The position numbers and the translations under genes were made by a program. DNA of 64,000 nt, taken from an uncultured Candidatus Saccharibacteria bacterium (GTDB lineage: Bacteria > Patescibacteriota > Minisyncoccia > Phycocordibacterales > UBA918). Shown here piece after piece: positions 2,165-61,555 of this stretch; the first letter of the stretch is position 1; every line of letters begins with the position of its first letter. The notes under the pieces were generated by a model that was not told the DNA's origin, made no database searches, and saw only the letters and a program-made list of their open reading frames with translations. The stretch is taken from contig CAZRNZ010000001.1 of the NCBI GenBank assembly GCA_964601615.1, positions 71,658 to 135,657 of the forward strand, given 5' to 3'.

Positions 2165-3178
2165 TTATCGCTTAGCGATGATTGTACGCTTGTAGGTGTC
2201 TAGGTGTTCAAGAGCAATTCCTGTTCCCTTGGCAACACAGAATAGTGCTTGATCAGCCAACTTTGCAGAAACACCAGTTCTTCTGCGAATCAATTCTGGG
2301 AAGTTACGAAGTTGTGAAGTTCCTCCTGTCATGATAATTCCGCCATCCATAATATCTGAAGCAAGTTCTGGTGGTGTGTCTTGAAAAACATCTTTGATAG
2401 CTTTTACCATTTCACGAAGCTCTTTGCCGATTGCTTGAACAATTTCGTTAGTCTTCACTTCTGTAACTCTTGGCAGTCCTGTTATTACGTCTATACCTTT
2501 AACGTCAATCGTAAGTTCTTCTTGTAGCGGAAGAGCTGAACCAATCTGGATCTTTACTTCCTCAGCTGTTTTTTCACCGATAGAAAGATTTCTGGTTTTC
2601 TTGATGTAGTCAATAATTGCGGCATCAATACGATTTCCTGAACACTTCACTGAGTTTGATGCAACAATTCCTCCGAGACTAATTACAGCAACATCGATAG
2701 TACCTCCACCACAGTCAACAATCATGTGTCCTTGTGGTTCATAAATAGGAACTCCAGCACCAATAGCAGAAAGAATCGGCTCTTTCACAACATAAGCATT
2801 TTTTGCACCAGCTTTGATAGCGGCCTCTACTACAGCGCGTTTTTCGGTTGAGGTAACCCCTGCAGGAACAGAAATAAGAACATCTGGTCTGAAGAAATTC
2901 CATTTCCCTAAAGCTTGTCGAATAAAATGTCCAAGCATTATTTCTGTAACTCGGTAATCAGCAATTACGCCATCTCGGAGTGGACGATAAGCGCGAATTC
3001 CGTCTGGGGTGCGACCAATCATTTCCTTTGCAGCTTTTCCAACAGCCAAAACCTGATTGTTGTCTGATACAGCTACTACTGACGGTTCATTTAGTACAAC
3101 TCCTTGTCCTGGAATAAATACCAAGATACTGGTTGTTCCAAGGTCGATACCGATTTTAGGGCTAAGGCGAGAAAACAT
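2165..3178 (-). CDS. mreB: rod shape-determining protein MreB (actin-like ATPase)
   Basis: IGIDLGTTSILVF, DCGGGTIDVAVISLGG, and IIMTGGTSQLRNF motifs; 337 aa. Confidence 0.9.
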   Translation of the reverse strand: MFSRLSPKIGIDLGTTSILVFIPGQGVVLNEPSVVAVSDNNQVLAVGKAAKEMIGRTPDGIRAYRPLRDGVIADYRVTEIMLGHFIRQALGKWNFFRPDVLISVPAGVTSTEKRAVVEAAIKAGAKNAYVVKEPILSAIGAGVPIYEPQGHMIVDCGGGTIDVAVISLGGIVASNSVKCSGNRIDAAIIDYIKKTRNLSIGEKTAEEVKIQIGSALPLQEELTIDVKGIDVITGLPRVTEVKTNEIVQAIGKELREMVKAIKDVFQDTPPELASDIMDGGIIMTGGTSQLRNFPELIRRRTGVSAKLADQALFCVAKGTGIALEHLDTYKRTIIAKR

Positions 3179-9555: not shown

Positions 9556-9592
9556 ACAAAACAGGCGCGCCCGAAGGGCGCGCCTGTTTTAT
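9556..9592. terminator. bidirectional intrinsic terminator AAAACAGGCGCGCCC-GAA-GGGCGCGCCTGTTTT (GAA-triloop hairpin family)
   Basis: 11-bp GC arms, GAA loop, A4/T4 flanks. Lies between convergent fmt and hpf. Confidence 0.8.
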
Positions 9593-15744: not shown

Positions 15745-15777
15745 AAAAAACCGGACAATTTTATTGTCCGGTTTTTA
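15745..15777. terminator. bidirectional terminator AAAACCGGACAATTTTATTGTCCGGTTTT (copy 1 of a duplicated 29-nt element)
   Basis: Identical 29-mer recurs at 16149-16177. Confidence 0.75.
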
Positions 15778-15781
15778 TTAT

Positions 15782-16066
15782 TTAATTAAGCATTTCTGTC
15801 GGTGGTTTTTCCATCTCATTTTCTGAAAAAGTAGTTGGTACTATGGCAATGTTGTTAGTTTTGTTTTCTTTGCCTAATCTTCTAGCATCAACCCAGGCTT
15901 CTTCTGGGGATGAGAATGGTGGTCCGATTACGGTAACTTGAAGTGTTTCAATCTCCTCCTCTTCTTCTTCAGCAAGTTGATCAACTTCTTCCTGAAAGGA
16001 AGTTGTGTCGTCGCCAAAGATAAAGCAAATCCCCGACCAATTTTCAATTTTTACTGAATTTTTCAA
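15782..16066 (-). CDS. hypothetical acidic protein (94 aa)
   Basis: ORF bracketed by the two identical 29-nt hairpins; E-rich. Confidence 0.35.
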   Translation of the reverse strand: MKNSVKIENWSGICFIFGDDTTSFQEEVDQLAEEEEEEIETLQVTVIGPPFSSPEEAWVDARRLGKENKTNNIAIVPTTFSENEMEKPPTEMLN

Positions 16067-16148: not shown

Positions 16149-16177
16149 AAAACCGGACAATTTTATTGTCCGGTTTT
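16149..16177. terminator. bidirectional terminator, copy 2 of the 29-nt element
   Basis: Exact repeat of 15749-15777. Confidence 0.75.
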
Positions 16178-16194
16178 AATTTTTTATAAAGATT

Positions 16195-17969: not shown

Positions 17970-18018
17970 AAATTGTGCCTTAGAATATAACAGAAAAGTT
18001 GTTTTTAGAGAAGAAAAT

Positions 18019-18045
18019 TGCCCGACAGCGAAGCTGTCGGGCAAT
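18019..18045. terminator. hairpin TTGCCCGACAGC-GAA-GCTGTCGGGCAA downstream of the EEP gene (GAA-triloop family)
   Basis: 12-bp arms with a GCGAAGC core. Confidence 0.65.
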
Positions 18046-18051
18046 TGATTG

Positions 18052-19673: not shown

Positions 19674-19680
19674 AGATAAA

Positions 19681-19712
19681 AAATAGCGCCGCTCGAAGGG
19701 CGGCGCTATTTT
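19681..19712. terminator. bidirectional terminator AATAGCGCCGCTC-GAA-GGGCGGCGCTATTTT
   Basis: GAA-triloop GC hairpin between convergent ung and the GH18 gene. Confidence 0.8.
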
Positions 19713-19738: not shown

Positions 19739-20905
19739 TTAGAAGAGTTTCCAAATATCTTGATCTTCTTCTCCATCGATCTTAAAGAAAACTATTCCCT
19801 TTAGATTATACTTTTCTGCCAAATTAATTTTATCTTCGGCAGATTTAGCATCTGAATACCAAACAACATTTACCTCAACTGGTACTTTTGCCAAGTTAGC
19901 AAATAGAAGTGCTTTAGCAGCTGCTTCAAAACCAGTTCTGGTATTATCTGGAGTTGGTAGTGCGTTTAAGATGCTGAAAATTGAATCTTTATGGAAGAAA
20001 CTATAGCTTGCTTCTCCAGCATTGTTGCGACCAATTTCTACATCATAATCATCTGCTAGTTCTAATACGTCAGGCAAGTTGATAGCGCTTACATTACGAT
20101 ATTCTTTGTACCACTCTGGTTCAACGGTGAGTTTCCACTGACGTCCATATGTTGGAATTCCAAGCATTATTTTTTCTGCAGGAATTTCCTTCAAGGTTTC
20201 TTTAATAACTTTTTCTACCCAGTCATTGTCTGCAACTGGAATATATGGCTCACCTTTTTTTAGGTCATTCAAAAGTAGGTCAGCACGTTGTTGGTCGTAG
20301 GCCATTATTTCTACAACGTCACAGTGTTTACCTATTTCTTTGTAGTCGTTTGCATACTCAATCACAGCAGGAACTGTTCTCCAACGACTTTCCGCAGGCA
20401 TTCTAGCTTCAACAGCACAGGTTAGTTTTTTACCATTTAGACGCGCTTTAAGTTCCTTTAAGAAAAGAGAGAAATGAACTTTTGTTGCAGCAAGCTTTGA
20501 TTCGTAGTCAATATTAATTCCATCAAATCCACCAGCCTCTACTGTTCTAGCAATAAGTTCGATATGCAAAGCTCTCCAAGTCGGGTTACTTAAAACTTGG
20601 TGGATTTCAGCTCCATTAGTCCATAAAATAGAAGGGATTACTTCTACATCATTTCTGTCGGCTTTTTTGATTAAATCTTGCCACTTTCCCTCAGTCAAAT
20701 CAGCTTTATCTACTGGAATTCCAGCAGAAGTGACTTCGTAAGCAAAAGGATAAATAATATCTAATTTATTAAGGTTTTTATCGGCACTTTCAGTACCCAT
20801 AGTGTCCTGCCACCAAGGAATCCAGCCACCTACTTCTAGAGCAGCGCTTGATGTGTTTGGTAATAGTAAGATAGTTAGCGCAAAAGCGACAAAAATATTT
20901 CTCAT
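19739..20905 (-). CDS. secreted glycoside hydrolase family 18-like (chitinase/peptidoglycan hydrolase-like) protein
   Basis: Signal peptide. GH18 catalytic block GFDGINIDYE, i.e. DxxDxDxE with the second Asp replaced by Asn and the catalytic Glu kept. Confidence 0.65.
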   Translation of the reverse strand: MRNIFVAFALTILLLPNTSSAALEVGGWIPWWQDTMGTESADKNLNKLDIIYPFAYEVTSAGIPVDKADLTEGKWQDLIKKADRNDVEVIPSILWTNGAEIHQVLSNPTWRALHIELIARTVEAGGFDGINIDYESKLAATKVHFSLFLKELKARLNGKKLTCAVEARMPAESRWRTVPAVIEYANDYKEIGKHCDVVEIMAYDQQRADLLLNDLKKGEPYIPVADNDWVEKVIKETLKEIPAEKIMLGIPTYGRQWKLTVEPEWYKEYRNVSAINLPDVLELADDYDVEIGRNNAGEASYSFFHKDSIFSILNALPTPDNTRTGFEAAAKALLFANLAKVPVEVNVVWYSDAKSAEDKINLAEKYNLKGIVFFKIDGEEDQDIWKLF

Positions 20906-20915
20906 ATATCATTTC

Positions 20916-20971
20916 TGACGCACAAAGGGGAGATTTCTTTCACTTGTGAAAGAAATCTCCCCTTTGTGCGT
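20916..20971. promoter_or_regulatory. 56-nt perfect palindrome (27-bp arms) 11 nt upstream of the GH18 start codon, between divergent GH18 and SLT genes
   Basis: GACGCACAAAGGGGAGATTTCTTTCAC-TT-GTGAAAGAAATCTCCCCTTTGTGCGTC; arms are exact reverse complements. Confidence 0.6.
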
Positions 20972-21031
20972 CTAAAGTCTGGGAGGCTCAAATTAGCCAT
21001 ATTTTGGCTCTAAATCAAACGGAGTAGCACA

Positions 21032-21397
21032 TTGAAGTTGAATAAAATATGCGTTCTATTGGGGTTGGTCGTATCTTTTTCGACCATCGCCACTACAACA
21101 CATGCCGGACCTGTTGAAAAAGAAGTGCGGCAATATTTCGCTGATGTTCCGATTATGGCCACAATTGCTGGCTGTGAATCTCGTTTTCGTCAGTTTGACG
21201 AAAACGGTCGGGTTTTGAAAAACCCAAATTCCAGCGCTAGTGGTGTGATGCAGATTATGTCGTCGATTCATAAGCGAGAAGCTGCTCGACTGGGGTATGA
21301 TATCTATACCCTCGAGGGCAATCTTGCCTATGCTCGTCATCTTTATCGGAACGAAGGAACGCGCCCTTGGAATGCTTCACGGCATTGCTGGGGGTGA
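21032..21397 (+). CDS. small secreted lytic transglycosylase (SLT-domain-like)
   Basis: TTG start with an AACGGAG RBS 7 nt upstream. Signal peptide. Catalytic region TIAGCESRFRQ...SSASGVMQIM resembles the SLT E-S...GLMQ motif. Confidence 0.55.
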   Translation: MKLNKICVLLGLVVSFSTIATTTHAGPVEKEVRQYFADVPIMATIAGCESRFRQFDENGRVLKNPNSSASGVMQIMSSIHKREAARLGYDIYTLEGNLAYARHLYRNEGTRPWNASRHCWG

Positions 21398-21540: not shown

Positions 21541-22353
21541 ATGCCTAAATACGTAGTTTTAGAAAAGAGGGTCGGTCAGACTCCTTTAAATGTTATTGAA
21601 GAATATAAGCTGGCTTATCCTGAATACAAAGATGTGCCAATGGCTTACGCTGGACGCCTTGATCCGATGGCTGATGGAAAGCTTTTGGTTTTGCTTGGTG
21701 AGGAGTGTAAGAATCAGAAGAATTATCACTCTTTGGATAAAGAATACATTTTTGAAGTATTGTTAGGTTCTTCCTCGGATACTGGAGATGTTCTTGGATT
21801 GATTGAATGGAGGGAAGCTACGAGTTTTGAGGTGGCGCGGCTTCGCCGCGCCACCTTACCTCTCATTGGTAAAATCTCTCTTCCCTATCCAAAGTTCTCA
21901 TCTCGCACAGTTAAAGGAAAGCCATTACATGTTTGGACTCTAGAAAATCGACTTTCAGAAATAGAAATACCAAGTGCTGAAACTGAAGTTTATAAATTAG
22001 ATTTAATAAATCTACGCACAGAGAGAAAAACTGATGTCTATAAAGATGCCATGGATAGAATTTCACTTATTCCAAAAGTTACTGAAGAAAGCAAAGCTCT
22101 GGGAAGGGACTTTCGAAGAGATGATGTGAGGGCGACCTGGAATAGTTGGCTGAGCCAAGAAAAAGATGGATTGGTACAAATTGCGACATTTAGATGTATT
22201 TGTTCTAGTGGTACTTATATGAGGTCATTGGCTGAAGAAATTGGTAAAAACCTTGGAACTACTGGTTTGGCTTATGGAATCCATCGGTCAAAAATAGGCT
22301 TATACAAAGCCATTACTTTCGGCTTTAGCTTTTGGAAAAAGAGATTTGATTGA
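21541..22353 (+). CDS. truB: tRNA pseudouridine(55) synthase TruB
   Basis: Catalytic-Asp motif AYAGRLDPMADGKLLVLLGEECK matches HxGxLDPxAxGxL. CSSGTYMRSLAEEIG matches CSKGTYIRT. Start is either ATG 21541 or 21514. Confidence 0.75.
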   Translation: MPKYVVLEKRVGQTPLNVIEEYKLAYPEYKDVPMAYAGRLDPMADGKLLVLLGEECKNQKNYHSLDKEYIFEVLLGSSSDTGDVLGLIEWREATSFEVARLRRATLPLIGKISLPYPKFSSRTVKGKPLHVWTLENRLSEIEIPSAETEVYKLDLINLRTERKTDVYKDAMDRISLIPKVTEESKALGRDFRRDDVRATWNSWLSQEKDGLVQIATFRCICSSGTYMRSLAEEIGKNLGTTGLAYGIHRSKIGLYKAITFGFSFWKKRFD

Positions 22354-22898: not shown

Positions 22899-22920
22899 TT
22901 TTTTATATGTGGTAAATAAA

Positions 22921-22950
22921 ATAAGGGCGCAGCAAAGCTGCGCCCTTATT
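22921..22950. terminator. terminator AAGGGCGCAGC-AAA-GCTGCGCCCTT downstream of fba (minus strand)
   Basis: GC hairpin with an AAA triloop and a T-run. Confidence 0.75.
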
Positions 22951-22965
22951 TTATCTCTCTACAAT

Positions 22966-23979: not shown

Positions 23980-23992
23980 GAGATAAGTATAT

Positions 23993-24027
23993 CAACACAA
24001 AGGGCGCCTTCGGCGCCCTTTGTGTTG
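23993..24027. terminator. hairpin CAACACAAAGGGCGCC-TTC-GGCGCCCTTTGTGTTG
   Basis: 16-bp stem between fba and the ABC permease gene. Confidence 0.65.
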
Positions 24028-24036
24028 ATATAAATA

Positions 24037-24799: not shown

Positions 24800-25537
24800 T
24801 TAGTTTTTCTGATTCTTAATTACTTCCAAATAAGTTTGCTCGACCGATTTCCCTTCTTTCATAAAGTCTTCTTTTGTACCTTCGGCTACAATTTTTCCAT
24901 TGTTAATAATCGCAATGTCGTTGCAAAGATATTGAATCTCTTCTAAGTAGTGAGAAGTAAGAATAATTGTTTTGCCACGCTCATTCATTTCTTTTAGATA
25001 CTGCCAAAGATCATGACGCTGTTCCACGTCTACTCCTGCAGTGGGTTCATCGAGAATTAGCAAATCTGGCGTGTGTACTAAGGCGCGACCAAGCATTGTG
25101 CGGCGTTTTAATCCACCAGAAAGTTTTTGGAATTTAACTTTACGATGATTTTCTAAATCAAAACGTTTTATTAGTTCGTCTATTCTCGTTAGTCTTTCTT
25201 CTTTAGGAATCCCGTAATAACCGCCCATGTAATTCATTAGGTCTTCTGGGGTTGAGAAAATATCAACGTTGTATTCCTGTGGAGAAAGTCCAACCTTTCT
25301 TCTAGCAAGTTTGTATTCTTTTACTACGTCTGTTCCATCAATTAAGATTTGTCCTGAGGTCGGTTGAGTAATTCCAGTAATACAATTGATGGTTGTTGAT
25401 TTTCCGGCGCCATTAGGTCCAAGTAAACCAAAAAAACTCCCCTTCGGAATTTTGAGTGAGATGTCATTTACGGCAGTTTTTCCTTCGTAAACTTTGGTTA
25501 GATTTTTTATCTCTAAAGCTAGTGTTGTTTCTGACAT
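24800..25537 (-). CDS. ABC transporter ATP-binding protein
   Basis: Walker A GPNGAGKST, signature LSGGLKRR, Walker B LLILDEPTAGVD. Confidence 0.85.
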   Translation of the reverse strand: MSETTLALEIKNLTKVYEGKTAVNDISLKIPKGSFFGLLGPNGAGKSTTINCITGITQPTSGQILIDGTDVVKEYKLARRKVGLSPQEYNVDIFSTPEDLMNYMGGYYGIPKEERLTRIDELIKRFDLENHRKVKFQKLSGGLKRRTMLGRALVHTPDLLILDEPTAGVDVEQRHDLWQYLKEMNERGKTIILTSHYLEEIQYLCNDIAIINNGKIVAEGTKEDFMKEGKSVEQTYLEVIKNQKN

Positions 25538-25570
25538 TTGTTAATTATAGCAAATGTGTCAAATGAAAAT

Positions 25571-25602
25571 AAAAAGCGCAGAGGCGAAGCCTCTGCGCTT
25601 TT
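25571..25602. terminator. terminator AGCGCAGAGGC-GAA-GCCTCTGCGCTTTT
   Basis: GAA-triloop hairpin with a GCGAAGC core, downstream of the minus-strand gene ending at 25607. Confidence 0.75.
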
Positions 25603-25606
25603 AAAA

Positions 25607-25864
25607 TTAAAGAAACCGACTCAACTTAATTTGCAAATAAAGACCGGGATCTTTCTTCAAAAGTTGATTCATCATTTTCTGAACATCAAAACTGCGATAT
25701 TTTCTCGCTTTGAAAAAAAGCTTTGGTCCAAAAAATAGCACCTGCCAAAAAGGAAGAGAAAAAATAAAACCAAGGCGTCGCTTTTGTTTATTTTTGATTT
25801 TATTCATCTCTTCCTCAATAAACTGAATAGATTCTCCGTAAGAGCTGGTTGCTGCCAAAGTCAA
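25607..25864 (-). CDS. hypothetical small protein (85 aa from a TTG start with a strong SD)
   Basis: AAGGAG 7 nt upstream of TTG at 25864-25862. A hydrophobic segment suggests membrane association. Confidence 0.4.
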   Translation of the reverse strand: MTLAATSSYGESIQFIEEEMNKIKNKQKRRLGFIFSLPFWQVLFFGPKLFFKARKYRSFDVQKMMNQLLKKDPGLYLQIKLSRFL

Positions 25865-25919
25865 AATATTTCTCCTTGACTAAAACTGTTCTAAATTGCA
25901 TAGTATCACTTAATAGATT

Positions 25920-26666
25920 ATGAATCAAGAAGAGAGATGGTTGTTGGAGGAAAAATTCGGAGGCGCGGAAAGCGAAGCTTTCCGCGCTGATTTATCGCTT
26001 TTGCGCTCAGGCACTCCCCTTGCCTATTTAATCGGTTCTGTACCGTTTTTAAACTGCAAAATACGCCTCGATTCAAGACCACTTATTCCAAGAGTTGAAA
26101 CTGAATATTGGGTTGAGAAAGCAATTGAAGAAATAAAGAAAGTGGGCGAAGCTTCGCTTCGCCCACTTCGAATCCTCGACCTTTGTTCTGGTTCTGGCTG
26201 TATCGGAGTATCAGTGGCAAAAAACATTCCAAGTACTTTGGTAGATTTTGCTGAGGTTGATTCATCTCACCTAGCAACGATTCTAAAAAATATTAAAGAA
26301 AATAATATTGATATTAAACGAACAAATATTTTAATTGGAGATTTGTTTGAAAATGTGACAGAGAAATACGATTTTATTCTTAGTAATCCACCATATATTG
26401 ATCCAGAAATTGATAGAGCTGAAGAAAGTGTAAAAACCCATGAACCTCATATTGCACTTTATGGTGGTAATGAGGGAATGGAAATAATTACTAAAATTAT
26501 TTCTGAAGCAAAAAATTACTTAACAGAATTAGGACAGCTTTGGATTGAGCATGAACCAGAACAGTCTGGAGATATTGCGACCATTGCAACTGGCGCAGGC
26601 TTCGCCCGCGCCACCACCCTTCCCGACCAGTACGATATATCGCGCTTCACTATTATTGTGAGATAA
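25920..26666 (+). CDS. prmC: release factor glutamine N5-methyltransferase PrmC/HemK
   Basis: SAM-binding LDLCSGSGCIG and catalytic NPPY. Contains three embedded GC hairpins (see findings). Confidence 0.8.
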   Translation: MNQEERWLLEEKFGGAESEAFRADLSLLRSGTPLAYLIGSVPFLNCKIRLDSRPLIPRVETEYWVEKAIEEIKKVGEASLRPLRILDLCSGSGCIGVSVAKNIPSTLVDFAEVDSSHLATILKNIKENNIDIKRTNILIGDLFENVTEKYDFILSNPPYIDPEIDRAEESVKTHEPHIALYGGNEGMEIITKIISEAKNYLTELGQLWIEHEPEQSGDIATIATGAGFARATTLPDQYDISRFTIIVR

Positions 26667-26673
26667 TAAAATC

Positions 26674-26877
26674 ATGATCGAATTGTTACTAGTTTTTGCA
26701 GAACTTGTTTTCTACTTTTCACTATTGTTATCAGTAATTTTTGCTTTGGTACTTGGTTATCACTGGTATCAGTATGGTACTAAAAAACGCCATGCCGCTA
26801 CCGCAGTAATTACTTTCTCAGTTGGCGCAACTTTATTTTTAGCAGTAATGGCTTTCTCTTTGATTTATGTTGGTTGA
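26674..26877 (+). CDS. small integral membrane protein (67 aa, 2 TM)
   Basis: Hydrophobic ORF overlapping the next gene by 11 nt. Confidence 0.4.
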   Translation: MIELLLVFAELVFYFSLLLSVIFALVLGYHWYQYGTKKRHAATAVITFSVGATLFLAVMAFSLIYVG

Positions 26878-27397
26878 TAGAATTGATTTAGAATCAGGTG
26901 AGAAATTAGTTGCCACTTCTCGTCGTCATAAATTTACTTTAATACTTGAACTTATAGGTCTGTCCTTGGTTTCATTAATTCCAATAGTTTTGCTGTTTGT
27001 TGCTCTTGCCTATCAAGAACTCCTACCTTTTGTTGTTTTAGATTACTTCTCTTTCTTCACCTATTTTTATGCATTTTGGTTGCTGATGATTTGGACAATA
27101 GTATTTACAGTTTTGAGTGAATATTATTTGGATGTTCTTATTGTGACAAATAAGCGCTTAATAATCGCTAATCAAAAAGGCTTTTGGCGTCGTAGTTTGT
27201 CTAGCTTTAGATTAGAGAGATTGCAGGATGTGAATGTAGAAATAAACGGTATTCTTGCAACGTTGCTAGACTTTGGAACTTTGCGCGCCGAAACAGCTGG
27301 TCATGGTGCAGAAAATTTCCATATGGACAATTTGCCAAATCCTCGCGCCCTCAAAGATAAAATAATGAACGCTCTTGATTCTGATAAAAGAGATTAA
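26867..27397 (+). CDS. membrane protein with a bacterial PH domain (YdbS/YdbT-like, bPH_2)
   Basis: Two TM helices, then YLDVLIVTNKRLIIANQKGFWRRSLSSFRLERLQDVNVEINGILATLLDFGTLRAETAG. Confidence 0.55.
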   Translation: MLVDRIDLESGEKLVATSRRHKFTLILELIGLSLVSLIPIVLLFVALAYQELLPFVVLDYFSFFTYFYAFWLLMIWTIVFTVLSEYYLDVLIVTNKRLIIANQKGFWRRSLSSFRLERLQDVNVEINGILATLLDFGTLRAETAGHGAENFHMDNLPNPRALKDKIMNALDSDKRD

Positions 27398-27420
27398 TTT
27401 ATTCACTTACGTAAGATAAA

Positions 27421-27456
27421 ACAAAAACCAGCGCCCTTCGGGCGCTGGTTTTTGTT
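27421..27456. terminator. terminator AAAAACCAGCGCCC-TTC-GGGCGCTGGTTTTTG
   Basis: Bidirectional, between convergent genes. Confidence 0.8.
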
Positions 27457-27472
27457 TTAATTATTTACTTGC

Positions 27473-32385: not shown

Positions 32386-32392
32386 ATAATTG

Positions 32393-32415
32393 GAGGGCGG
32401 CAAAGCCGCCTTCCA
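32393..32415. terminator. hairpin GGAGGGCGGC-AAA-GCCGCCTTCC, 8 nt after the hisS stop
   Basis: 10-bp stem with one G-U pair. No strong T-run. Overlaps the 5' end of the next track ORF. Confidence 0.45.
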
Positions 32416-32443
32416 TACTTTGAATAGTTTAAAATCTGAAATC

Positions 32444-33019
32444 GTGCGTTACATTGTATTCGACCTGGAAACCCAAAATACTTTTGCTGATGTTGGCAGT
32501 AATGATTCTGTTAGCCTAGATATTTCTGTGGCCTGTTTTTATGATAGCGAAACGGATCAATATACTACGGTAACTGTTGATGAACTTTCTACTGTTTGGC
32601 CACTTCTAGAAAAAGCTGATGCTTTGGTTGGATACAATAGTAATCATTTTGATATCCCGCTTTTGAATAAATATTATCCGGGAGATTTGACTACCATAAA
32701 GAGTATTGACCTGCTTGAATCTATTCGTGCATCACTCGGCCGTCGTTTGCGATTGGATAGTGTGGCTGAGGCTACTATCGGTGCTAAGAAATCAGCGGAC
32801 GGCCTGCAGGCCGTCCGCTGGTGGCGTGAAGGAAAAATTGATGAAATCAAAAAATATTGTCAGCAAGACGTTAAGGTAACTAAGAAAGTTTTTGATTACG
32901 CAATGACTAACGGACACGTGAAGTTTAAGGACGGCTCTCGCAAGCGCGAAATAGTTCTCGATACTTCAACTTGGACTGAAAAGGAGGATTCTTCGATGAC
33001 TCACGCTCTGCCTTTTTAG
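32444..33019 (+). CDS. DEDDy-type 3'-5' exonuclease (DnaQ/RNase D-like fold)
   Basis: Exo motifs FDLET, YNSNHFDIPLL, YCQQDV. The likely start is GTG at 32444 (M-RYIVFDLET), not the track's TTG at 32390, which sits inside the hisS terminator hairpin. Confidence 0.6.
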   Translation: MRYIVFDLETQNTFADVGSNDSVSLDISVACFYDSETDQYTTVTVDELSTVWPLLEKADALVGYNSNHFDIPLLNKYYPGDLTTIKSIDLLESIRASLGRRLRLDSVAEATIGAKKSADGLQAVRWWREGKIDEIKKYCQQDVKVTKKVFDYAMTNGHVKFKDGSRKREIVLDTSTWTEKEDSSMTHALPF

Positions 33020-35534: not shown

Positions 35535-35568
35535 GAAAAAGAGCGCCGGCGAAGCCGGCGCTCTTTTT
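35535..35568. terminator. bidirectional terminator AAAAAGAGCGCCGGC-GAA-GCCGGCGCTCTTTTT
   Basis: GCGAAGC-core hairpin with A5/T5 flanks. Confidence 0.8.
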
Positions 35569-35581
35569 ACTTCCTTAACCT

Positions 35582-38524
35582 CTAAACTACAAATTTCTCC
35601 CCTGAAATTATCTCCTTAGAAACATGAATAATCACTTTCTTCAGTTCCTCAATTTCTTCATCTGTGACAATAAAAGAATGTTCTACTACTTCCCCGCTTC
35701 TTTCTTTTGGTTCGACGAAAGAAAGAGTAAAGTTTGGAGATTCTGACATTTCTGGATTTTGCAACTTAAGTAATAATGCATAAAAAACTAATTGTCGCTT
35801 ATATGCCCCACTACTACTTTTAGTTAAGCCTTCAATATCATTTCTGGATTTTGGTTTTCCAGTTTTGTAATCTACAACTTTTATTACCTGACCTTCTTTG
35901 TTGAAATCTAGTCGGTCAATTTTTCCTGTCAAAGGAATTTCTGGTAGATCAACATCTCCGGTTTCTAGTGTGACATGAACAGCTTGCTCGGTTCTAGATT
36001 GCTCATTAATGCCCTCAATTATGTAATTAATATAAGTAACTAGTGCAGGGAACGATTTTTCATGAAGAGAAACTTCATCGCTTTGGCTAAGAGGAAGTTT
36101 TTCTAGAGCATTATGTAGGTATTCAGAAATAACTTTTTCGTTAGGTTTAGTGTTTTCTCGGATATAAAGTCCAACTACTTTTTCCAAAACTTCGTGCACA
36201 GCCTCACCCTTTAGAAGCGACAAAGACCTTGGTTGAGGCTTACGTAAAAGATTCGCGAAGTAATACTTCATCGGATCTTCGATGTAGTTATTTAGATGAG
36301 TGACAGAAAGTCCGCGGGATAAAAATATACTTCTAATTAGTTCAGAATCAATTTTGATTGTTGGTAGTGGTTTTTTGAGAATATTGCTCGGGTCAAAATC
36401 ATTGCCTTCTTTCTCGGTAGAAATCACTTCCAACAAATCGGTTTCAATATCGTTTATAAAACGTGATGGTTCTTTTAGTTTTCCACTAGGATCATTTTCA
36501 CTACTAGATATATATAGACTCTTTTTGGCACGCGTCATTGCTACATAGAATAATCTACGATCGTCATCTTCTGGCCCAAAAGCTGAAATAGGTTCATGAC
36601 TCATTAGTGGCAACTTAAATAAGTCTCTTTTCGATGCTTTGCCAAAAGCATCATCACTGGCTCTCGGTATAAAGACAGTTTCAAATTCCAGTCCTTTTGA
36701 TTTGTGAGCTGTCATTACTTGTACTGCACTGCGGTCATTGTTGATAAATGGTGCGATCAAAGCCAGGTTGTGTAATCTGCGATACTGAAGTTCTCTAGCA
36801 ACATCAAGAGTGGTTGCTTTGCCGTTGGTGACAACCAAGTTTTCTACCTCATCATAAAGGCGACGTAGTATTCTAGTTCCTTCGATTGGCTCGTGAGTCA
36901 TTACATGGTCAAGTAAACCGCTCTTTTCAATTAAAAACTGTAGGACAAGGTGTGGCGAGGTTGCTGTGGTTTTTTTACGAGCCTCATTCAGTAGGTCACC
37001 AATTTGCAGAATTGAATCAATATCAGATACTCCGATTTCTTCTAGTTTCTCTCTGTTATTTATTAATCTAAAAATCGGCCAATATCTATTGCGGGCAGAT
37101 AAAACTAAAGCAATATCATTTCCGCTAGCCTTTAGCCAGCCACCAATCAATACCTCAAATAGACTTTCTTCAGTAAACGAACAGGTAGCAGAAAGTAAGC
37201 TCTCAACTGCTTTTGTAATTGGATGCTCAAGAATGTCACTATCCGCTGATGGGTTTACATCAATGTTATGACGACGAAGTAGACTAGCAATACCTTCCAC
37301 ATCAATATTTCTTCGTACGATTACTGCAATTTCATTAAGTGGAACTTTATTTTCAATTTGTTTATTTATTTCCACCACTAACCAGTCATTTTCAACTGCC
37401 TCGTGAGCAAAATAGCGAAATGAAGGTTTTATATTACTTTCTTCTCGAGCTGAGTTAAGTGGAATGCGCAGTCTAGAGATTTCTTCATCGTCAGATTTAA
37501 TCAAAGAATGAGCAGCGTCTAGTATCGCTTGTCCTGAGCGATAGTTTTCGGTTAAACCAACAACCTCTGTATCTTTGTAATGATCTTCAAAAAATAAGAA
37601 GTTATCCAAGGAAGCACCTTGGAAACGATAAATAGCCTGTTTTTCATCGCCTACCACAAATAGATTTGGTGAATCGTGATAAGAAGCTAGTGTCTCTAAA
37701 ATCTGATTTTGGGAAGAGTTTACATCTTGATGTTCGTCTGCCAAAATATATTGATAAGTTTCTTGTATATCACGAAGCATGTCTTCGTTATTTTGTAGAG
37801 CAGAAACTGTCTCAATAATCATGTCTTCAAAGTCAAAAAGTTTTTGTTCTCTGAGAACTGTTTGATACTGACGATAAACCTGACAAAGTTCTGTTAGTTT
37901 AGTGATACGCTTTTCCATATCAGCGTAAGCACCTCGCACCTTACCTTTATGGGCACCTTTTTCATGAAATTTTGGCTCATCATCAAGAATTTTTTGTAAT
38001 TCAGAAATACGCTCCGAAAAAATATCTGGAGTTATATATTCTTTCTTTAGCTCGTTAATAGCTGAAGGAATTTTTTTGACATAATAAAGTGGGTCACCAT
38101 GAGGTCGAAGACTAGGAAATTGTCCGCTGTCTATGATGTTTTGAATAATAGACAGCTTGTCTATGTCGTTACTTGGTCGTCCACCAATAATAGAAGGATA
38201 AGCATCTGGATATTGGCGAATGAGACTACCTGCAAAGCTGTGAAAAGTATTTACAGCAACTTTGTAACTAGCGTCGCCAATGTAGCGTCTAAGGCGCTCA
38301 CGCATGGCGTGAGCGCCTGCATCGGTAAAAGTAAGTGCCAAGATATTCTCTGGCTTTGTATCTGTCTTTAAGAGGATGTTTGCTATTCTAAGAGCCAGAA
38401 TTTCAGTCTTACCTGTTCCTGGCCCTGCTATTACCATTACAGGTCCTTCGGTCGTGTCCACTGCCTTTTTTTGCTGTTTATTGAGGTTTTTATAGGCCTT
38501 TTCAAAAGCTTCAGAGGTAATCAT
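35582..38524 (-). CDS. UvrD/PcrA-family helicase fused to a C-terminal PD-(D/E)xK (RecB-like) nuclease domain
   Basis: N-terminal Walker A AGPGTGKTE. UvrD motifs throughout. C-terminal GKIDRLDF...VVDYKTGKPK nuclease motif. 980 aa. Confidence 0.8.
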   Translation of the reverse strand: MITSEAFEKAYKNLNKQQKKAVDTTEGPVMVIAGPGTGKTEILALRIANILLKTDTKPENILALTFTDAGAHAMRERLRRYIGDASYKVAVNTFHSFAGSLIRQYPDAYPSIIGGRPSNDIDKLSIIQNIIDSGQFPSLRPHGDPLYYVKKIPSAINELKKEYITPDIFSERISELQKILDDEPKFHEKGAHKGKVRGAYADMEKRITKLTELCQVYRQYQTVLREQKLFDFEDMIIETVSALQNNEDMLRDIQETYQYILADEHQDVNSSQNQILETLASYHDSPNLFVVGDEKQAIYRFQGASLDNFLFFEDHYKDTEVVGLTENYRSGQAILDAAHSLIKSDDEEISRLRIPLNSAREESNIKPSFRYFAHEAVENDWLVVEINKQIENKVPLNEIAVIVRRNIDVEGIASLLRRHNIDVNPSADSDILEHPITKAVESLLSATCSFTEESLFEVLIGGWLKASGNDIALVLSARNRYWPIFRLINNREKLEEIGVSDIDSILQIGDLLNEARKKTTATSPHLVLQFLIEKSGLLDHVMTHEPIEGTRILRRLYDEVENLVVTNGKATTLDVARELQYRRLHNLALIAPFINNDRSAVQVMTAHKSKGLEFETVFIPRASDDAFGKASKRDLFKLPLMSHEPISAFGPEDDDRRLFYVAMTRAKKSLYISSSENDPSGKLKEPSRFINDIETDLLEVISTEKEGNDFDPSNILKKPLPTIKIDSELIRSIFLSRGLSVTHLNNYIEDPMKYYFANLLRKPQPRSLSLLKGEAVHEVLEKVVGLYIRENTKPNEKVISEYLHNALEKLPLSQSDEVSLHEKSFPALVTYINYIIEGINEQSRTEQAVHVTLETGDVDLPEIPLTGKIDRLDFNKEGQVIKVVDYKTGKPKSRNDIEGLTKSSSGAYKRQLVFYALLLKLQNPEMSESPNFTLSFVEPKERSGEVVEHSFIVTDEEIEELKKVIIHVSKEIISGEKFVV

Positions 38525-40719: not shown

Positions 40720-40740
40720 GTTGGTTGAGGTTGTAAAATA

Positions 40741-40775
40741 AACAGCGCCGCCCAAAGGGCGGCGCTGTTTTATAA
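40741..40775. terminator. bidirectional terminator AAACAGCGCCGCCC-AAA-GGGCGGCGCTGTTTT
   Basis: 12-bp GC stem with A/T flanks. Confidence 0.8.
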
Positions 40776-44248: not shown

Positions 44249-44284
44249 TGGCGGCGGCGAAGCGAAGCTTCGCCGCCTTTTTCT
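44249..44284. terminator. terminator GGCGGCGAAGC-GAA-GCTTCGCCGCC plus T-run (two GCGAAGC cores)
   Basis: 11-bp arms with a GAA loop. Confidence 0.75.
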
Positions 44285-44862: not shown

Positions 44863-44892
44863 GCTGGGGTTTATTTTTTAAGTAAACAAACA

Positions 44893-44926
44893 AAAAGAGG
44901 CGCGCCCTTTGGGCGCGCCTCTTTTT
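44893..44926. terminator. bidirectional terminator AAAAAGAGGCGCGCCC-TTT-GGGCGCGCCTCTTTTT
   Basis: Lies between the LDT-like gene and rpoC. Confidence 0.8.
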
Positions 44927-52772: not shown

Positions 52773-52812
52773 TTGATATAAACAAGAGTGGGCGGAACCG
52801 AAGGTTCCGCCC
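52773..52812. terminator. hairpin AGAGTGGGCGGAACC-GAA-GGTTCCGCCCACTCTTTT
   Basis: 15-bp arms with a GAA loop, between the KH gene and trmD. Confidence 0.7.
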
Positions 52813-52830
52813 ACTCTTTTATTCGACAAT

Positions 52831-55712: not shown

Positions 55713-55740
55713 GTCTTGGATAGAGGGATTTAAATAACAA

Positions 55741-55772
55741 AAGTGCGGCGCCTTCGGCGCCGCACTTTTGTT
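55741..55772. terminator. bidirectional terminator AAAGTGCGGCGCC-TTC-GGCGCCGCACTTTT
   Basis: 12-bp GC stem between rnr and smc. Confidence 0.8.
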
Positions 55773-55782
55773 ATTTAGAATT

Positions 55783-58506: not shown

Positions 58507-58542
58507 AAAACGAGCGGTGCCTTCGGCGCCGCTCGTTTTATT
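58507..58542. terminator. terminator AAAAAACGAGCGGTGCC-TTC-GGCGCCGCTCGTTTTATTT
   Basis: GC hairpin with a T-run, between rnc and the pilin gene. Confidence 0.75.
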
Positions 58543-59329: not shown

Positions 59330-60253
59330 TTAAGTATCTTTAGCTACGAGCATTGTAACTGCTTTTGTAACTATCGGCAGTATATCCTCATAGAAGTTCA
59401 GGTCAAGTATTTCGGTGATTTTGAACCACTTTGCATCATCTAAACCTCCCTTTTTTTCCATAGAAAGTTCAGAATAATCAGATTTTGCCAGGAAATAGTT
59501 GACCTGCTTGCGATGTTTGCCAATCTCTGGTTTGTTGGCTACATACTCATTCGAACCAAGTTCAGATTCAATTGTGATATCTAAACCAGTCTCTTCTCTG
59601 AGCGCTCTTTTTGCACCTTCTTCCAAAGTTTCTGTTTCTGCAACCTTACTTTTAGACAGAGTCCAGTGACCAAAAATATCATGCACCAAGGCTAAGTAAA
59701 TGGATCCTTCATGAATTGTGTAAACTACAGCACCAGACATGCGAACTATAGGCATTTTTTCAAATGGCAAATCCTTTCTTTTTTTGGTTATTTCTTCCTT
59801 TCCTGGTTCACCAATTTCTTTATAAACAGCACCTAATACACCGTTCACAAAACGACCAGAATTTTCGCCACCAAATTGCTTAGCGAGTTCAATTGCTTCA
59901 TTGATAGCTACTTTGGCTGGAACTTCTTTTCGATCTGAGAAAAGAAGTTCATAAAGTCCGAGTCGAAGAATATTTCTATCAACTGGAGAGATTCTATCGA
60001 TAGGCCACTCTGGAGCGGCTTTTTCGATTACTAGGTCAAGTTCTTTTTGTTTCTGCAGGACACCATCTAAAACCTTTTCCATAAAAGGCAGGTCGCTTTT
60101 GTTTTTTGCGAATTCTTCAACGTTACGAGAAAGAACCTCCAGGGACTCGTTTTTGTCGATTCCACTTTGATCCCATTCGAAAAGTGTTTGAAGAATTATT
60201 GATCTTGAAAGGTGCCTGTTTGCCATTTTTGAACTTATTATCCTAAACTTCAA
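59330..60253 (-). CDS. nusB: NusB (transcription antitermination) domain fused in-frame to a C-terminal NUDIX hydrolase domain
   Basis: N-terminal half ...LRLGLYELLFSDRKEVPAKVAINEAIELAKQFGGENSGRFVNGVL (KVAINEAIELAK identical to E. coli NusB). C-terminal half has the Nudix box AETETLEEGAKRALREETGL. Single 307-codon ORF. Confidence 0.75.
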   Translation of the reverse strand: MKFRIISSKMANRHLSRSIILQTLFEWDQSGIDKNESLEVLSRNVEEFAKNKSDLPFMEKVLDGVLQKQKELDLVIEKAAPEWPIDRISPVDRNILRLGLYELLFSDRKEVPAKVAINEAIELAKQFGGENSGRFVNGVLGAVYKEIGEPGKEEITKKRKDLPFEKMPIVRMSGAVVYTIHEGSIYLALVHDIFGHWTLSKSKVAETETLEEGAKRALREETGLDITIESELGSNEYVANKPEIGKHRKQVNYFLAKSDYSELSMEKKGGLDDAKWFKITEILDLNFYEDILPIVTKAVTMLVAKDT

Positions 60254-60958: not shown

Positions 60959-61555
60959 TTATGTCAATTTTGTACAAAATGATCTTCGGTGAATATTACA
61001 AAACCCGTATTTCTTTATTGATTCTCGATGTGTTTTAGTTCCATAGCCTTTGTGTTTGGCAAAGTCATATTCTGGATATTTTACTGAAATTTTCTCCATA
61101 TAGCGGTCACGAGTAACTTTTGCCATGATTGAAGCTAGTCCAATACATAGTTCTTTAGCATCACCTTTGATGATAGTTTCTTGGTTTGGGAAGTTAGACG
61201 GCGCGCGAAGCGCGCCGTCTAGTTTTATTACAACCTCCTTCTCACCAAAGCTATTTCTTTTTTTTAAATTATTTAAACAGTTCAACATTGCTTTATTGAT
61301 AGATGGAACAATGCCAATTGTGTCAATGTCTTTAGCGCTCGTCATGGTTACATGAAAGTCTAAAGAGCCGTTTTTCTTCAAAATTTCTGCTTGTCCAAAA
61401 ACTGCTTCGCGGTTCTTTGGTGTTATCTTTTTACTGTCCCCTACCCCTAAAATCATTCCCCAATCAAAATCTTTCTTTACCAAAACCACTCCTACCGCAA
61501 CTGGTCCAGCTAGTGGTCCTCTGCCAGCTTCATCAATCCCCAACAAGTATTTCAT
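60959..61555 (-). CDS. rnhB: ribonuclease HII
   Basis: MKYLLGIDEAGRGPLAGPVAVGVVLV with the DEDD active-site start. Contains an embedded 25-nt GC hairpin at 61195-61219. Confidence 0.85.
   Translation of the reverse strand: MKYLLGIDEAGRGPLAGPVAVGVVLVKKDFDWGMILGVGDSKKITPKNREAVFGQAEILKKNGSLDFHVTMTSAKDIDTIGIVPSINKAMLNCLNNLKKRNSFGEKEVVIKLDGALRAPSNFPNQETIIKGDAKELCIGLASIMAKVTRDRYMEKISVKYPEYDFAKHKGYGTKTHRESIKKYGFCNIHRRSFCTKLT

Follow-up and report, generated by a model that had tools for sequence, protein, structure and literature searches.

A stretch of 64,000 nucleotides (nt) from an uncultured Candidatus Saccharibacteria bacterium (GenBank assembly GCA_964601615.1, contig CAZRNZ010000001.1, positions 71,658 to 135,657), here called the window, carries a prmC gene with three GC-rich hairpins inside its coding sequence. 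The first of them, hairpin 1, is found at the same nine codons in 105 of 141 orthologs from Paceibacteria-type genomes, and its arms vary while their complementarity stays. The account that we favor, with a probability of about 0.55, has two layers. Selection would maintain hairpin 1 as a stem-loop in the prmC mRNA, with its pairing kept at the expense of the protein sequence, and hairpins 2 and 3, with the other palindromes of the gene, would be younger products of template switching.

The prmC gene (25920..26666, plus strand) of this small genome of the Paceibacteria type encodes a release-factor N5-glutamine methyltransferase of 248 amino acids, and its identity as PrmC/HemK is given by the NCBIfam model TIGR03534 (E value, 6.9e-58). 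Homologs with 50 to 67% identity occur in Kaiserbacteria, Nomurabacteria, and other Paceibacteria-type metagenome-assembled genomes. The G+C content of the window is 38%, and the hairpin-bearing sequence recurs in an independent public assembly with 0 mismatches over 1,307 nt. Hairpin 1 (25963..25987, plus strand) reads GCGCGGAAAGC-GAA-GCTTTCCGCGC and has 11 perfect pairs; the outer G·U pair (25962/25988) brings the stem to 12, and with it, the hairpin extends over nt 43 to 69 of the coding sequence. It is in register with the reading frame, with codons 15 to 18 paired with codons 20 to 23 (15/23, 16/22, 17/21, and 18/20) and codon 19 (GAA) forming the loop, and its predicted minimum free energy (MFE) as RNA is -21.3 kcal/mol (z score, -4.1). 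Hairpin 2 (26140..26168, plus strand; AAGTGGGCGAAGC-TTC-GCTTCGCCCACTT) lies in codons 74 to 83 and has 13 perfect pairs and an RNA MFE of -23.3 kcal/mol (z score, -6.0). Hairpin 3 (26591..26613, plus strand; TGGCGCAGGC-TTC-GCCCGCGCCA) is codon aligned, covering codons 224 to 232 with the TTC of Phe228 as the loop, and has 9 of 10 pairs and one sense-strand A·C mismatch. It folds more strongly on the antisense strand (-21.1 kcal/mol) than on the sense strand (-15.6 kcal/mol; z score, -2.6). In the AlphaFold model of PrmC (predicted local distance difference test score, 94), hairpins 1, 2, and 3 each straddle the end of a helix, a loop, and the start of the following element.

The first-pass annotation of this DNA, made from the sequence alone, had placed three GC hairpins in prmC and considered them unlikely to have arisen by chance. 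All three were recovered where it had put them, hairpin 2 being longer than recorded, and the peptide stretches that it listed agree with the translation of the open reading frame (ORF). With qualifying hairpins defined by a minimum of 9 pairs, 8 or more of them G-C, no more than 1 mismatch, and a 3-nt loop, prmC has three; 29 of 5,000 synonymous-codon shuffles had one and 0 had two or more, and only 1 of 5,000 codon-order shuffles had a single qualifying hairpin.

Hairpin 1 across the prmC orthologs

Codon alignments were built from 80 genomic loci, 4 loci of the closest relatives, and 80 metagenomic loci, and the 141 orthologs counted for hairpin 1 come from a first set of 79 and a second, metagenome set of 63 new sequences. 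The protein alignment shows no insertion at the hairpin-1 peptide GAESEAFRA, and its consensus at this site is G-x-K-S-E-A-F-x-A. The perfect 12-bp stem is present in 55 of the 141 orthologs (33/79 in the first set and 22/63 in the second), and among the 105 carriers of hairpin 1, the stem starts at nt 43 to 46 in 91. The mean MFE is -19.6 kcal/mol, and synonymous shuffles give -12.0 kcal/mol. Four genomes at 60 to 66% protein identity have the same 25-nt hairpin, with synonymous sites elsewhere scrambled. When the first 180 nt of 106 hairpin-bearing prmC genes were analyzed with RNAalifold, hairpin 1 was the only conserved structure, and no larger structure spanning the prmC 5' region was predicted from these sequences. 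RNAalifold predicted no pairs when it was applied to all 79 sequences, because the approximately 20 hairpin-less sequences veto the stem.

The suggestion of the first-pass annotation that the palindromes have relevance at the nucleic acid level is supported. Among lineages, the loop-proximal codon pairs are switched on both arms (AGC/GCT, TGC/GCA, ACC/GGT, and TCC/GGA), as are the outer codon pairs (GCG/CGC, ATG/CAT, GTG/CAC, ACG/CGT, CAG/CTG, TTG/CAA, ATT/AAT, and GTA/TAC). The residue pairs that result from reverse-complement codons include Ala/Arg, Met/His, Val/His, Thr/Arg, Gln/Leu, Glu/Phe, Lys/Phe, Ser/Ala, Cys/Ala, and Thr/Gly. Of the 141 sequences, 109 have residues 16 and 22 that could be encoded by reverse-complement codons, compared with 58 in shuffles (maximum, 72). 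In alignment A2, 85% of the hairpin-1 cells are paired, compared with 72.9% ± 0.8% in shuffles, and 110 cells show double changes, compared with 40 ± 4.8 in shuffles, 0 of 500 of which reach 110. Slid controls, in which relatedness is retained, gave 21 to 60 double-change cells. Double changes are found in 10 of the 12 hairpin-1 pairs, and the 63 independent metagenome sequences replicate the picture. On a neighbor-joining tree of the rest of the protein, parsimony gives at least 132 switches between Watson-Crick pair types, a crude number that is only indicative. The annotation had also allowed for coincidental palindromes, in which orthologs would have the same amino acids encoded by nonpalindromic codons; at hairpin 1, it is the amino acids that differ and the palindrome that stays. 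According to the account favored here, a change in one arm would be followed by a change of the partner codon to its reverse complement.

The pairs that depart from Watson-Crick geometry are mostly of one kind. In sequences bearing hairpin 1, G·T was found 32 times and A·C 3 times, and the corresponding counts in the second set are 36 and 6. In the four informative column pairs, the ratio of observed to expected occurrences is 0.63 for G·T and 0.22 for A·C. The Phe21 codon is TTC in 2 of 97 sequences with A as the partner base, where it would give A·C, and in 21 of 38 sequences with G; the baseline for TTC is 25% (Fisher's exact test, P = 2.6e-12). The choice between GGT and GGC at Gly15 follows the same rule against Ala or Thr at position 23, and several orthologs have three to five G·U pairs in hairpin 1. 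This pattern looks like a signature of sense-strand pairing, of which pairing in the mRNA would be the simplest reading, and it argues against a protein site in duplex DNA, an antisense RNA element, and purely DNA-level conversion. An antisense role, with hairpin 1 as a 5' untranslated region element of the divergent upstream gene, was considered and rejected; its wobbles would become A·C, and the upstream gene differs in the window.

In the ortholog loci, prmC is usually the first gene beside a divergently oriented gene, with a spacer of 20 to 140 nt. In the window, a consensus scan detected a promoter-like TTGACT-17-CATAGT (25876..25904, plus strand) upstream of prmC, which would leave a leader of approximately 8 nt without a Shine-Dalgarno (SD) sequence. 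In the 60 nt upstream of prmC in loci L001 to L166, TTGAC-17-(g)CATAGT(a) ends 10 to 13 nt before the ATG in most orthologs, and almost none has an SD sequence. The prmC mRNA is therefore probably near-leaderless in this clade, starting approximately 5 to 10 nt before the AUG. Hairpin 1 begins approximately 25 nt past the 3' edge of the footprint of the initiating ribosome, a position just beyond the footprint that follows from the near-leaderless, SD-less form of the mRNA. Unusually strong folding at nt 30 to 70 of coding sequences is a weak general trend that has been proposed to slow early elongation (PMC7063772). Hairpin 1 might similarly be a fixed roadblock that has to be melted by the first elongating ribosome (or by RNA polymerase), which would limit the rate of start-site clearance and hence PrmC output. 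Alternatively, it may set the lifetime of the mRNA, serve as a protein or RNase site, or pause RNA polymerase. Frameshifting or slippage at the A-run of the consensus stem was rejected on inspection, since the run, which the window lacks, is part of the stem and is out of the slippery X XXY YYZ frame.

Two side observations concern hairpin 1 and the region upstream of prmC. In locus L032, an 18-codon insertion is located exactly in the hairpin-1 loop (prmC codons 18-19, locus ~3049-3102), and the arms around it (GGTGAAAAAACT ... GATTTTTTTACT) are still largely complementary. The spacer between the ATP-binding cassette transporter ATPase gene and prmC (25538-25919) is 382 nt in the window, compared with 108 nt in L085 and 28 nt in L086, and the extra DNA holds a terminator hairpin (25572-25602) and a minus-strand ORF of 85 amino acids (25607-25864), an arrangement that suggests the insertion of a small gene.

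Hairpins 2 and 3 and other palindromes

Hairpins 2 and 3 are restricted to few lineages. Hairpin 2 is located at the end of helix 59-78 and in the loop before strand β1, which is variable in length in the alignment, and the region is six residues longer than in Escherichia coli PrmC. Only L005 and L081 have homologs of hairpin 2, both of which show two compensatory changes and a single A·C mismatch. L083 and L084 have no hairpin 2 and a loop that is four codons shorter; the extra length at the site is 12 nt, and the hairpin is 29 nt. The same loop holds unrelated palindromes of 8 to 20 bp in L002/L013, L003, L029, L050, L051, L073, and L079. The minus strand of hairpin 2 was flagged as terminator-like, with a 14-pair stem and the tail CTTTATTTCT. 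Both homologs also have T-rich antisense tails, and their mismatches would be G·U on the antisense strand; hairpin 2 may hypothetically terminate antisense transcription. Hairpin 3 involves no length change relative to the orthologs. L084/L086 has a perfect 12-bp version in the same codons (GGTGGCGCGGGC-TAT-GCCCGCGCCACC), L083 and L081 have none, and a palindrome one codon out of register occurs in L008 and L011; hairpin 3 of the window is a decayed copy.

The prmC gene is a hot spot of such palindromes. In 80 prmC genes, 83 perfect hairpins of at least 8 bp were counted, compared with approximately 8.5 after synonymous shuffling, with peaks at residues 19 (42 hairpins), 76 to 81 (14), 111 (7), and 128 to 137 (6). 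The density of perfect stems of at least 10 bp is 1.12 per kb in prmC and 0.071 per kb in 311 kb of neighboring ORFs, an approximately 16-fold difference, and the neighboring ORFs are still above the null of approximately 0.005 per kb (22 stems, compared with approximately 2 expected). In L086, prmC alone has four perfect hairpins, compared with three in the other ~17 kb of coding sequence, and a palindrome lies inside a six-codon insertion in the 128-137 loop; in L085, prmC keeps only hairpin 1. In the window, the VDFxEVD motif coincides with a degenerate quasi-palindrome (26241..26261, plus strand; GTAGATTTT-GCT-GAGGTTGAT) with only 3 Watson-Crick and 5 G·U pairs and no significant fold (z score, -0.01). 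This site is a perfect coding palindrome of 14 to 20 bp in some orthologs, and L008, L015, and L065 have 19-bp stems with differing outer sequences. As a separate observation, the VDFxEID motif (β2 of the methyltransferase fold, residues ~105 to 117) is itself reverse-complement symmetric, and its palindromes are extended to 18 to 20 bp in L008, L015, L053, L065, and others, with residue pairs such as Met/His, Val/His, Arg/Ala, and Glu/Leu. Sites 111 (VDFxEID) and 30 (RLAxGEPL) were rejected as universal hairpins, with long perfect stems, reaching 14 to 20 bp, in approximately 3 to 10% of the orthologs and little overall excess of pairing.

Other genes of the window also contain coding palindromes, with 20 perfect hairpins of at least 8 bp in its coding sequences, compared with 7.3 expected from synonymous shuffles. 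Outside prmC, they include long, GC-rich palindromes with perfect stems of 11 to 12 bp in truB (21830-21856), an RNase_H_2-like ORF (32793-32820; ORF 32390-33019), a minus-strand UvrD-type helicase gene (38292-38318), and a minus-strand rnhB gene (61195-61221), with further ones at 21182-21206 and 59920-59950. L086 retains the truB hairpin, in which a compensatory change has turned T-A into A-T, and L085 lacks it. The RNase_H_2-like palindrome is also kept in L086, and L085 has the peptide SADGLQAVRW from nonpalindromic codons. The helicase palindrome is kept in L086 as well, and the L085 locus does not extend to the site. Hairpins 2 and 3 and the truB and RNase_H_2-like palindromes are gained and lost among relatives, and hairpin 1 keeps its position.

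In the favored account, hairpins 2 and 3, like many other palindromes of the prmC orthologs, would be younger and patchy, lying at helix-loop junctions and in indel-tolerant loops. Template switching is a documented creator and repairer of perfect stems (PMC8794818; PMC5941160), and it is the most likely origin of hairpins 2 and 3. A switch during replication would rewrite one arm as the reverse complement of its partner, and the resulting palindromes would then be tolerated or weakly selected.

A scan for GC-rich triloop hairpins identified 23 in the window, most of which are intergenic and flanked by an A-run and a T-run and look like bidirectional terminators. The intergenic terminator hairpins are at 9558-9590, 18016-18046, 19680-19712, 22916-22954, 23988-24032, 25572-25602, 27417-27459, 35536-35568, 40740-40770, 44253-44277, 44892-44926, 52784-52818, 55731-55777, and 58507-58539. 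They have GC-rich perfect stems and GAA, TTC, or AAA triloops, with an architecture in common and no common sequence. The first-pass annotation had likened the prmC hairpins to this family, and the likeness holds for the architecture (GC stem, GAA or TTC triloop, and C-G closing pair) and does not extend to the sequence. Two 38-nt terminator-like hairpins (AAAACCGGACAAT-TTT-ATTGTCCGGTTTT; 15747-15784 and 16149-16186), 95% identical and 402 nt apart, flank a unit with a minus-strand ORF for a Glu-rich protein of 94 amino acids (15782-16066). Between the minus-strand gene at 19739-20905 and the ORF at 21032-21397, there is a perfect 26-bp palindrome with a 4-nt loop (GACGCACAAAGGGGAGATTTCTTTCA-CTTG-...; 20917-20972), which is much longer than the terminator hairpins and has no T-run.

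Origin and role of the prmC hairpins

Several points weigh against a selected mRNA stem-loop at hairpin 1. No structure is present at the site in 21 of the 141 orthologs (z score, -0.1), and the hairpin is therefore dispensable in some lineages. The asymmetry between G·U and A·C is partly confounded by coding constraints, and a hairpin in single-stranded DNA of the sense strand would fit it as well. The tolerance of G·U with avoidance of A·C on the sense strand is seen at hairpin 1 and not at hairpins 2 and 3; mismatches in prmC hairpins besides hairpin 1 are not biased toward wobble pairs (G·T, 15; A·C, 29; other, 52), and a sense-strand A·C is present in hairpin 3 and in each of the two relatives of hairpin 2. 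The 16-fold palindrome enrichment specific to prmC stays without explanation, and the functional step for hairpin 1 is one that we purely infer. Concerted evolution of the arms by template switching could also mimic compensatory substitution, as has been argued for nematomorphs (PMC6649704). This last point leads to an explanation that we find possible though doubtful, namely, that all three hairpins are functionless, self-perpetuating coding palindromes, each of which would have arisen by a template switch, with later mismatches erased or copied across through the same process, and which are not lost by deletion because they encode an essential protein. The dominance of perfect stems, even at hairpin 1 (55/141), the patchy gain and loss of hairpins 2, 3, and others, and the absence of a wobble preference outside hairpin 1 fit such a process. 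So does the general low-level excess of palindromes both in the neighboring genes and in the window. The codon-symmetric phase is preferred, as in nematomorph mitochondria, the source of this model, and perfect inverted repeats are overconserved in Proteobacteria, which has been attributed to template switching (PMC5941160). However, conversion at the DNA level should treat G·T and A·C alike, and hairpin 1 avoids A·C even at free synonymous sites. Hairpin 1 is also fixed in position across a class-level clade while other palindromes are scattered, and prmC is 16 times richer in palindromes than adjacent genes in the same replication context.

The first-pass annotation had offered intragenic attenuators, in-frame element insertions, and DNA recognition sites as readings of the hairpins. 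Termination or attenuation, whether of sense prmC transcription or of incoming antisense transcripts, would account for their building plan, which is that of the intergenic, often bidirectional terminators of the same genome. Hairpin 2 is moreover terminator-like on the minus strand, and its two homologs and the rnhB hairpin have T-rich antisense tails. A sense-strand attenuator is nevertheless unlikely, since in the window and the orthologs alike, the three hairpins lack a downstream U-tract on the sense strand, and the wobbles of hairpin 1 point to that very strand. T-rich tails are lacking on both strands at hairpin 3 and at the truB and helicase hairpins, a consensus scan detected no antisense promoter-like site inside prmC, and the antisense T-tract of hairpin 2 is simply the Lys and Glu codons of the protein, which makes termination quite improbable as a general explanation. 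In-frame insertion of a mobile palindromic element, similar to a Rickettsia palindromic element or a miniature inverted-repeat transposable element, finds some footing at hairpin 2, the loop of which is four codons longer than in L083 and L084 and six residues longer than in E. coli PrmC and has received 40-nt palindromic insertions in L029, L073, and L079; the L086 palindrome in the 128-137 loop likewise lies within an insertion. The proposal is thus borne out in part for this length-variable loop, although the 12 nt added there fall short of the 29 nt of the hairpin, and it fails for hairpins 1 and 3, which do not differ in length from the orthologs. The palindromes have no sequence in common with each other, the hairpin-1 core matches only itself in the window at up to 3 mismatches, and the consensus 25-mer of hairpin 1 occurs only at the prmC position in 166 loci. 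A dispersed element is contradicted by this uniqueness, and hairpin 1 has been maintained over the whole class instead of decaying. The element-insertion reading of the prmC hairpins is mostly wrong, and as an explanation of all three, it is very improbable.

Least probable of all is a role of the palindromes as DNA sites, bound by a dimeric DNA-binding protein, a restriction-modification enzyme, or a recombinase, or extruded as cruciforms. They are perfect DNA palindromes, the d(GCGAAGC)-type triloop is very stable in DNA, and prmC adjoins a divergent promoter region with a short spacer. However, the half-site sequences vary and only their complementarity is conserved, G·T is tolerated on the sense strand only, and the stems are far longer and more variable than restriction-modification sites; the hairpin is also kept in the window although the neighboring divergent gene differs from that of the relatives. 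A stronger form of the RNA reading is that hairpin 1 is a riboregulator in the Paceibacteria prmC ORF, with a trans-acting factor (PrmC, a release factor, or an RNase) reading the stem-loop to set the PrmC level and the further palindromes being part of the same control. We consider this unlikely. If it were true, an RNA constraint would have overridden the protein sequence for hundreds of millions of years, and the hairpin would represent a new class of regulatory RNA embedded in coding sequences of minimal-genome bacteria.

Significance and relation to known systems

An Rfam 15 scan of 25400-27000 at an E value of ≤1 returned nothing at hairpins 1 to 3; its matches at 25564-25657 were dismissed as subthreshold and falling on the intergenic terminator. 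At the gathering score, Rfam detected only two tRNAs in the whole window. Full-text literature searches found nothing on coding hairpins in prmC or in bacteria of the candidate phyla radiation (CPR). If the favored account is correct, prmC hairpin 1 would be an unusually clean example of a contest between an RNA helix and a protein over shared nucleotides that the helix wins, with amino acid pairs covarying as reverse-complement codons across a bacterial class. It may provide a tractable system in which to measure the cost of mRNA structure in protein sequence space and to separate selection for RNA pairing from template-switch conversion as maintainers of perfect stems. It would also point to posttranscriptional control in CPR bacteria, which have few known regulators and, in this case, mRNAs of a leaderless type without SD sequences. 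Two cautions arise, namely, that apparent protein coevolution at spacings of i/i+2 to i+8 can stem from nucleic acid pairing and that noncoding RNA finders that mask coding sequences will miss such elements.

The prmC hairpins resemble the Rho-independent terminators of the same genome (25572-25602, 27417-27459, and 35536-35568) in their GC-rich perfect stem, GAA or TTC triloop, and C-G closure. The intergenic hairpins are flanked by A-runs and T-runs, whereas those of prmC have no sense U-tract and only hairpin 2 has an antisense one. Rickettsia palindromic elements are a dispersed family of 100- to 150-bp repeats that add tens of residues and decay with time. Like them, the prmC palindromes are translated within a functional protein at surface or junction sites, but they are not members of a repeat family, the protein is not lengthened by hairpins 1 and 3, and hairpin 1 is undecayed.

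The closest parallel is found in the coding palindromes of nematomorph mitochondria (PMC6649704; 2019), in which perfect inverted repeats also lie in protein genes, with both arms encoding conserved protein, codon degeneracy optimizing the pairing, the codon-symmetric phase preferred, gain and loss patchy, and template switching or conversion proposed as the maintenance mechanism. The prmC palindromes differ in that they are found on a bacterial (CPR/Paceibacteria) chromosome, are 8 to 20 bp long with 3- to 4-nt loops, compared with up to 284 bp in nematomorphs, and are concentrated in one gene. Furthermore, hairpin 1 occupies one position throughout a class-level clade and tolerates G·U, whereas the nematomorph repeats are nearly all perfect and without G·U tolerance. 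The tail of G·U-containing stems at hairpin 1 departs from that all-or-none character, and the other prmC palindromes, mostly perfect cores with random flanking mismatches, agree with it. The template-switch hairpins described by Mönttinen and Löytynoja in 2022 (PMC8794818) and Lavi et al. in 2018 (PMC5941160) show a similar one-step origin of perfect stems, multibase compensatory changes, and overconserved bacterial inverted repeats. Those cases are in rRNA and noncoding RNA genes and in noncoding repeats, whereas the prmC stems are in an ORF, where each event faces selection at the protein level. The early-elongation folding signal of Peeri and Tuller in 2020 (PMC7063772) matches the location of hairpin 1 at nt 43 to 69 after a weakly folded start, and a slowing role is proposed for both. 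The published signal is a weak statistical average over genes that acts via synonymous sites, and hairpin 1 is an individual helix of 12 bp that belongs to one gene family and shows nonsynonymous compensation. Conserved RNA structure in coding sequences and coding palindromes are known kinds, and what appears to be new here, judged from the literature found, is a short, codon-aligned bacterial palindrome that is conserved class-wide, forces amino acid covariation, and belongs to a set concentrated in one gene.

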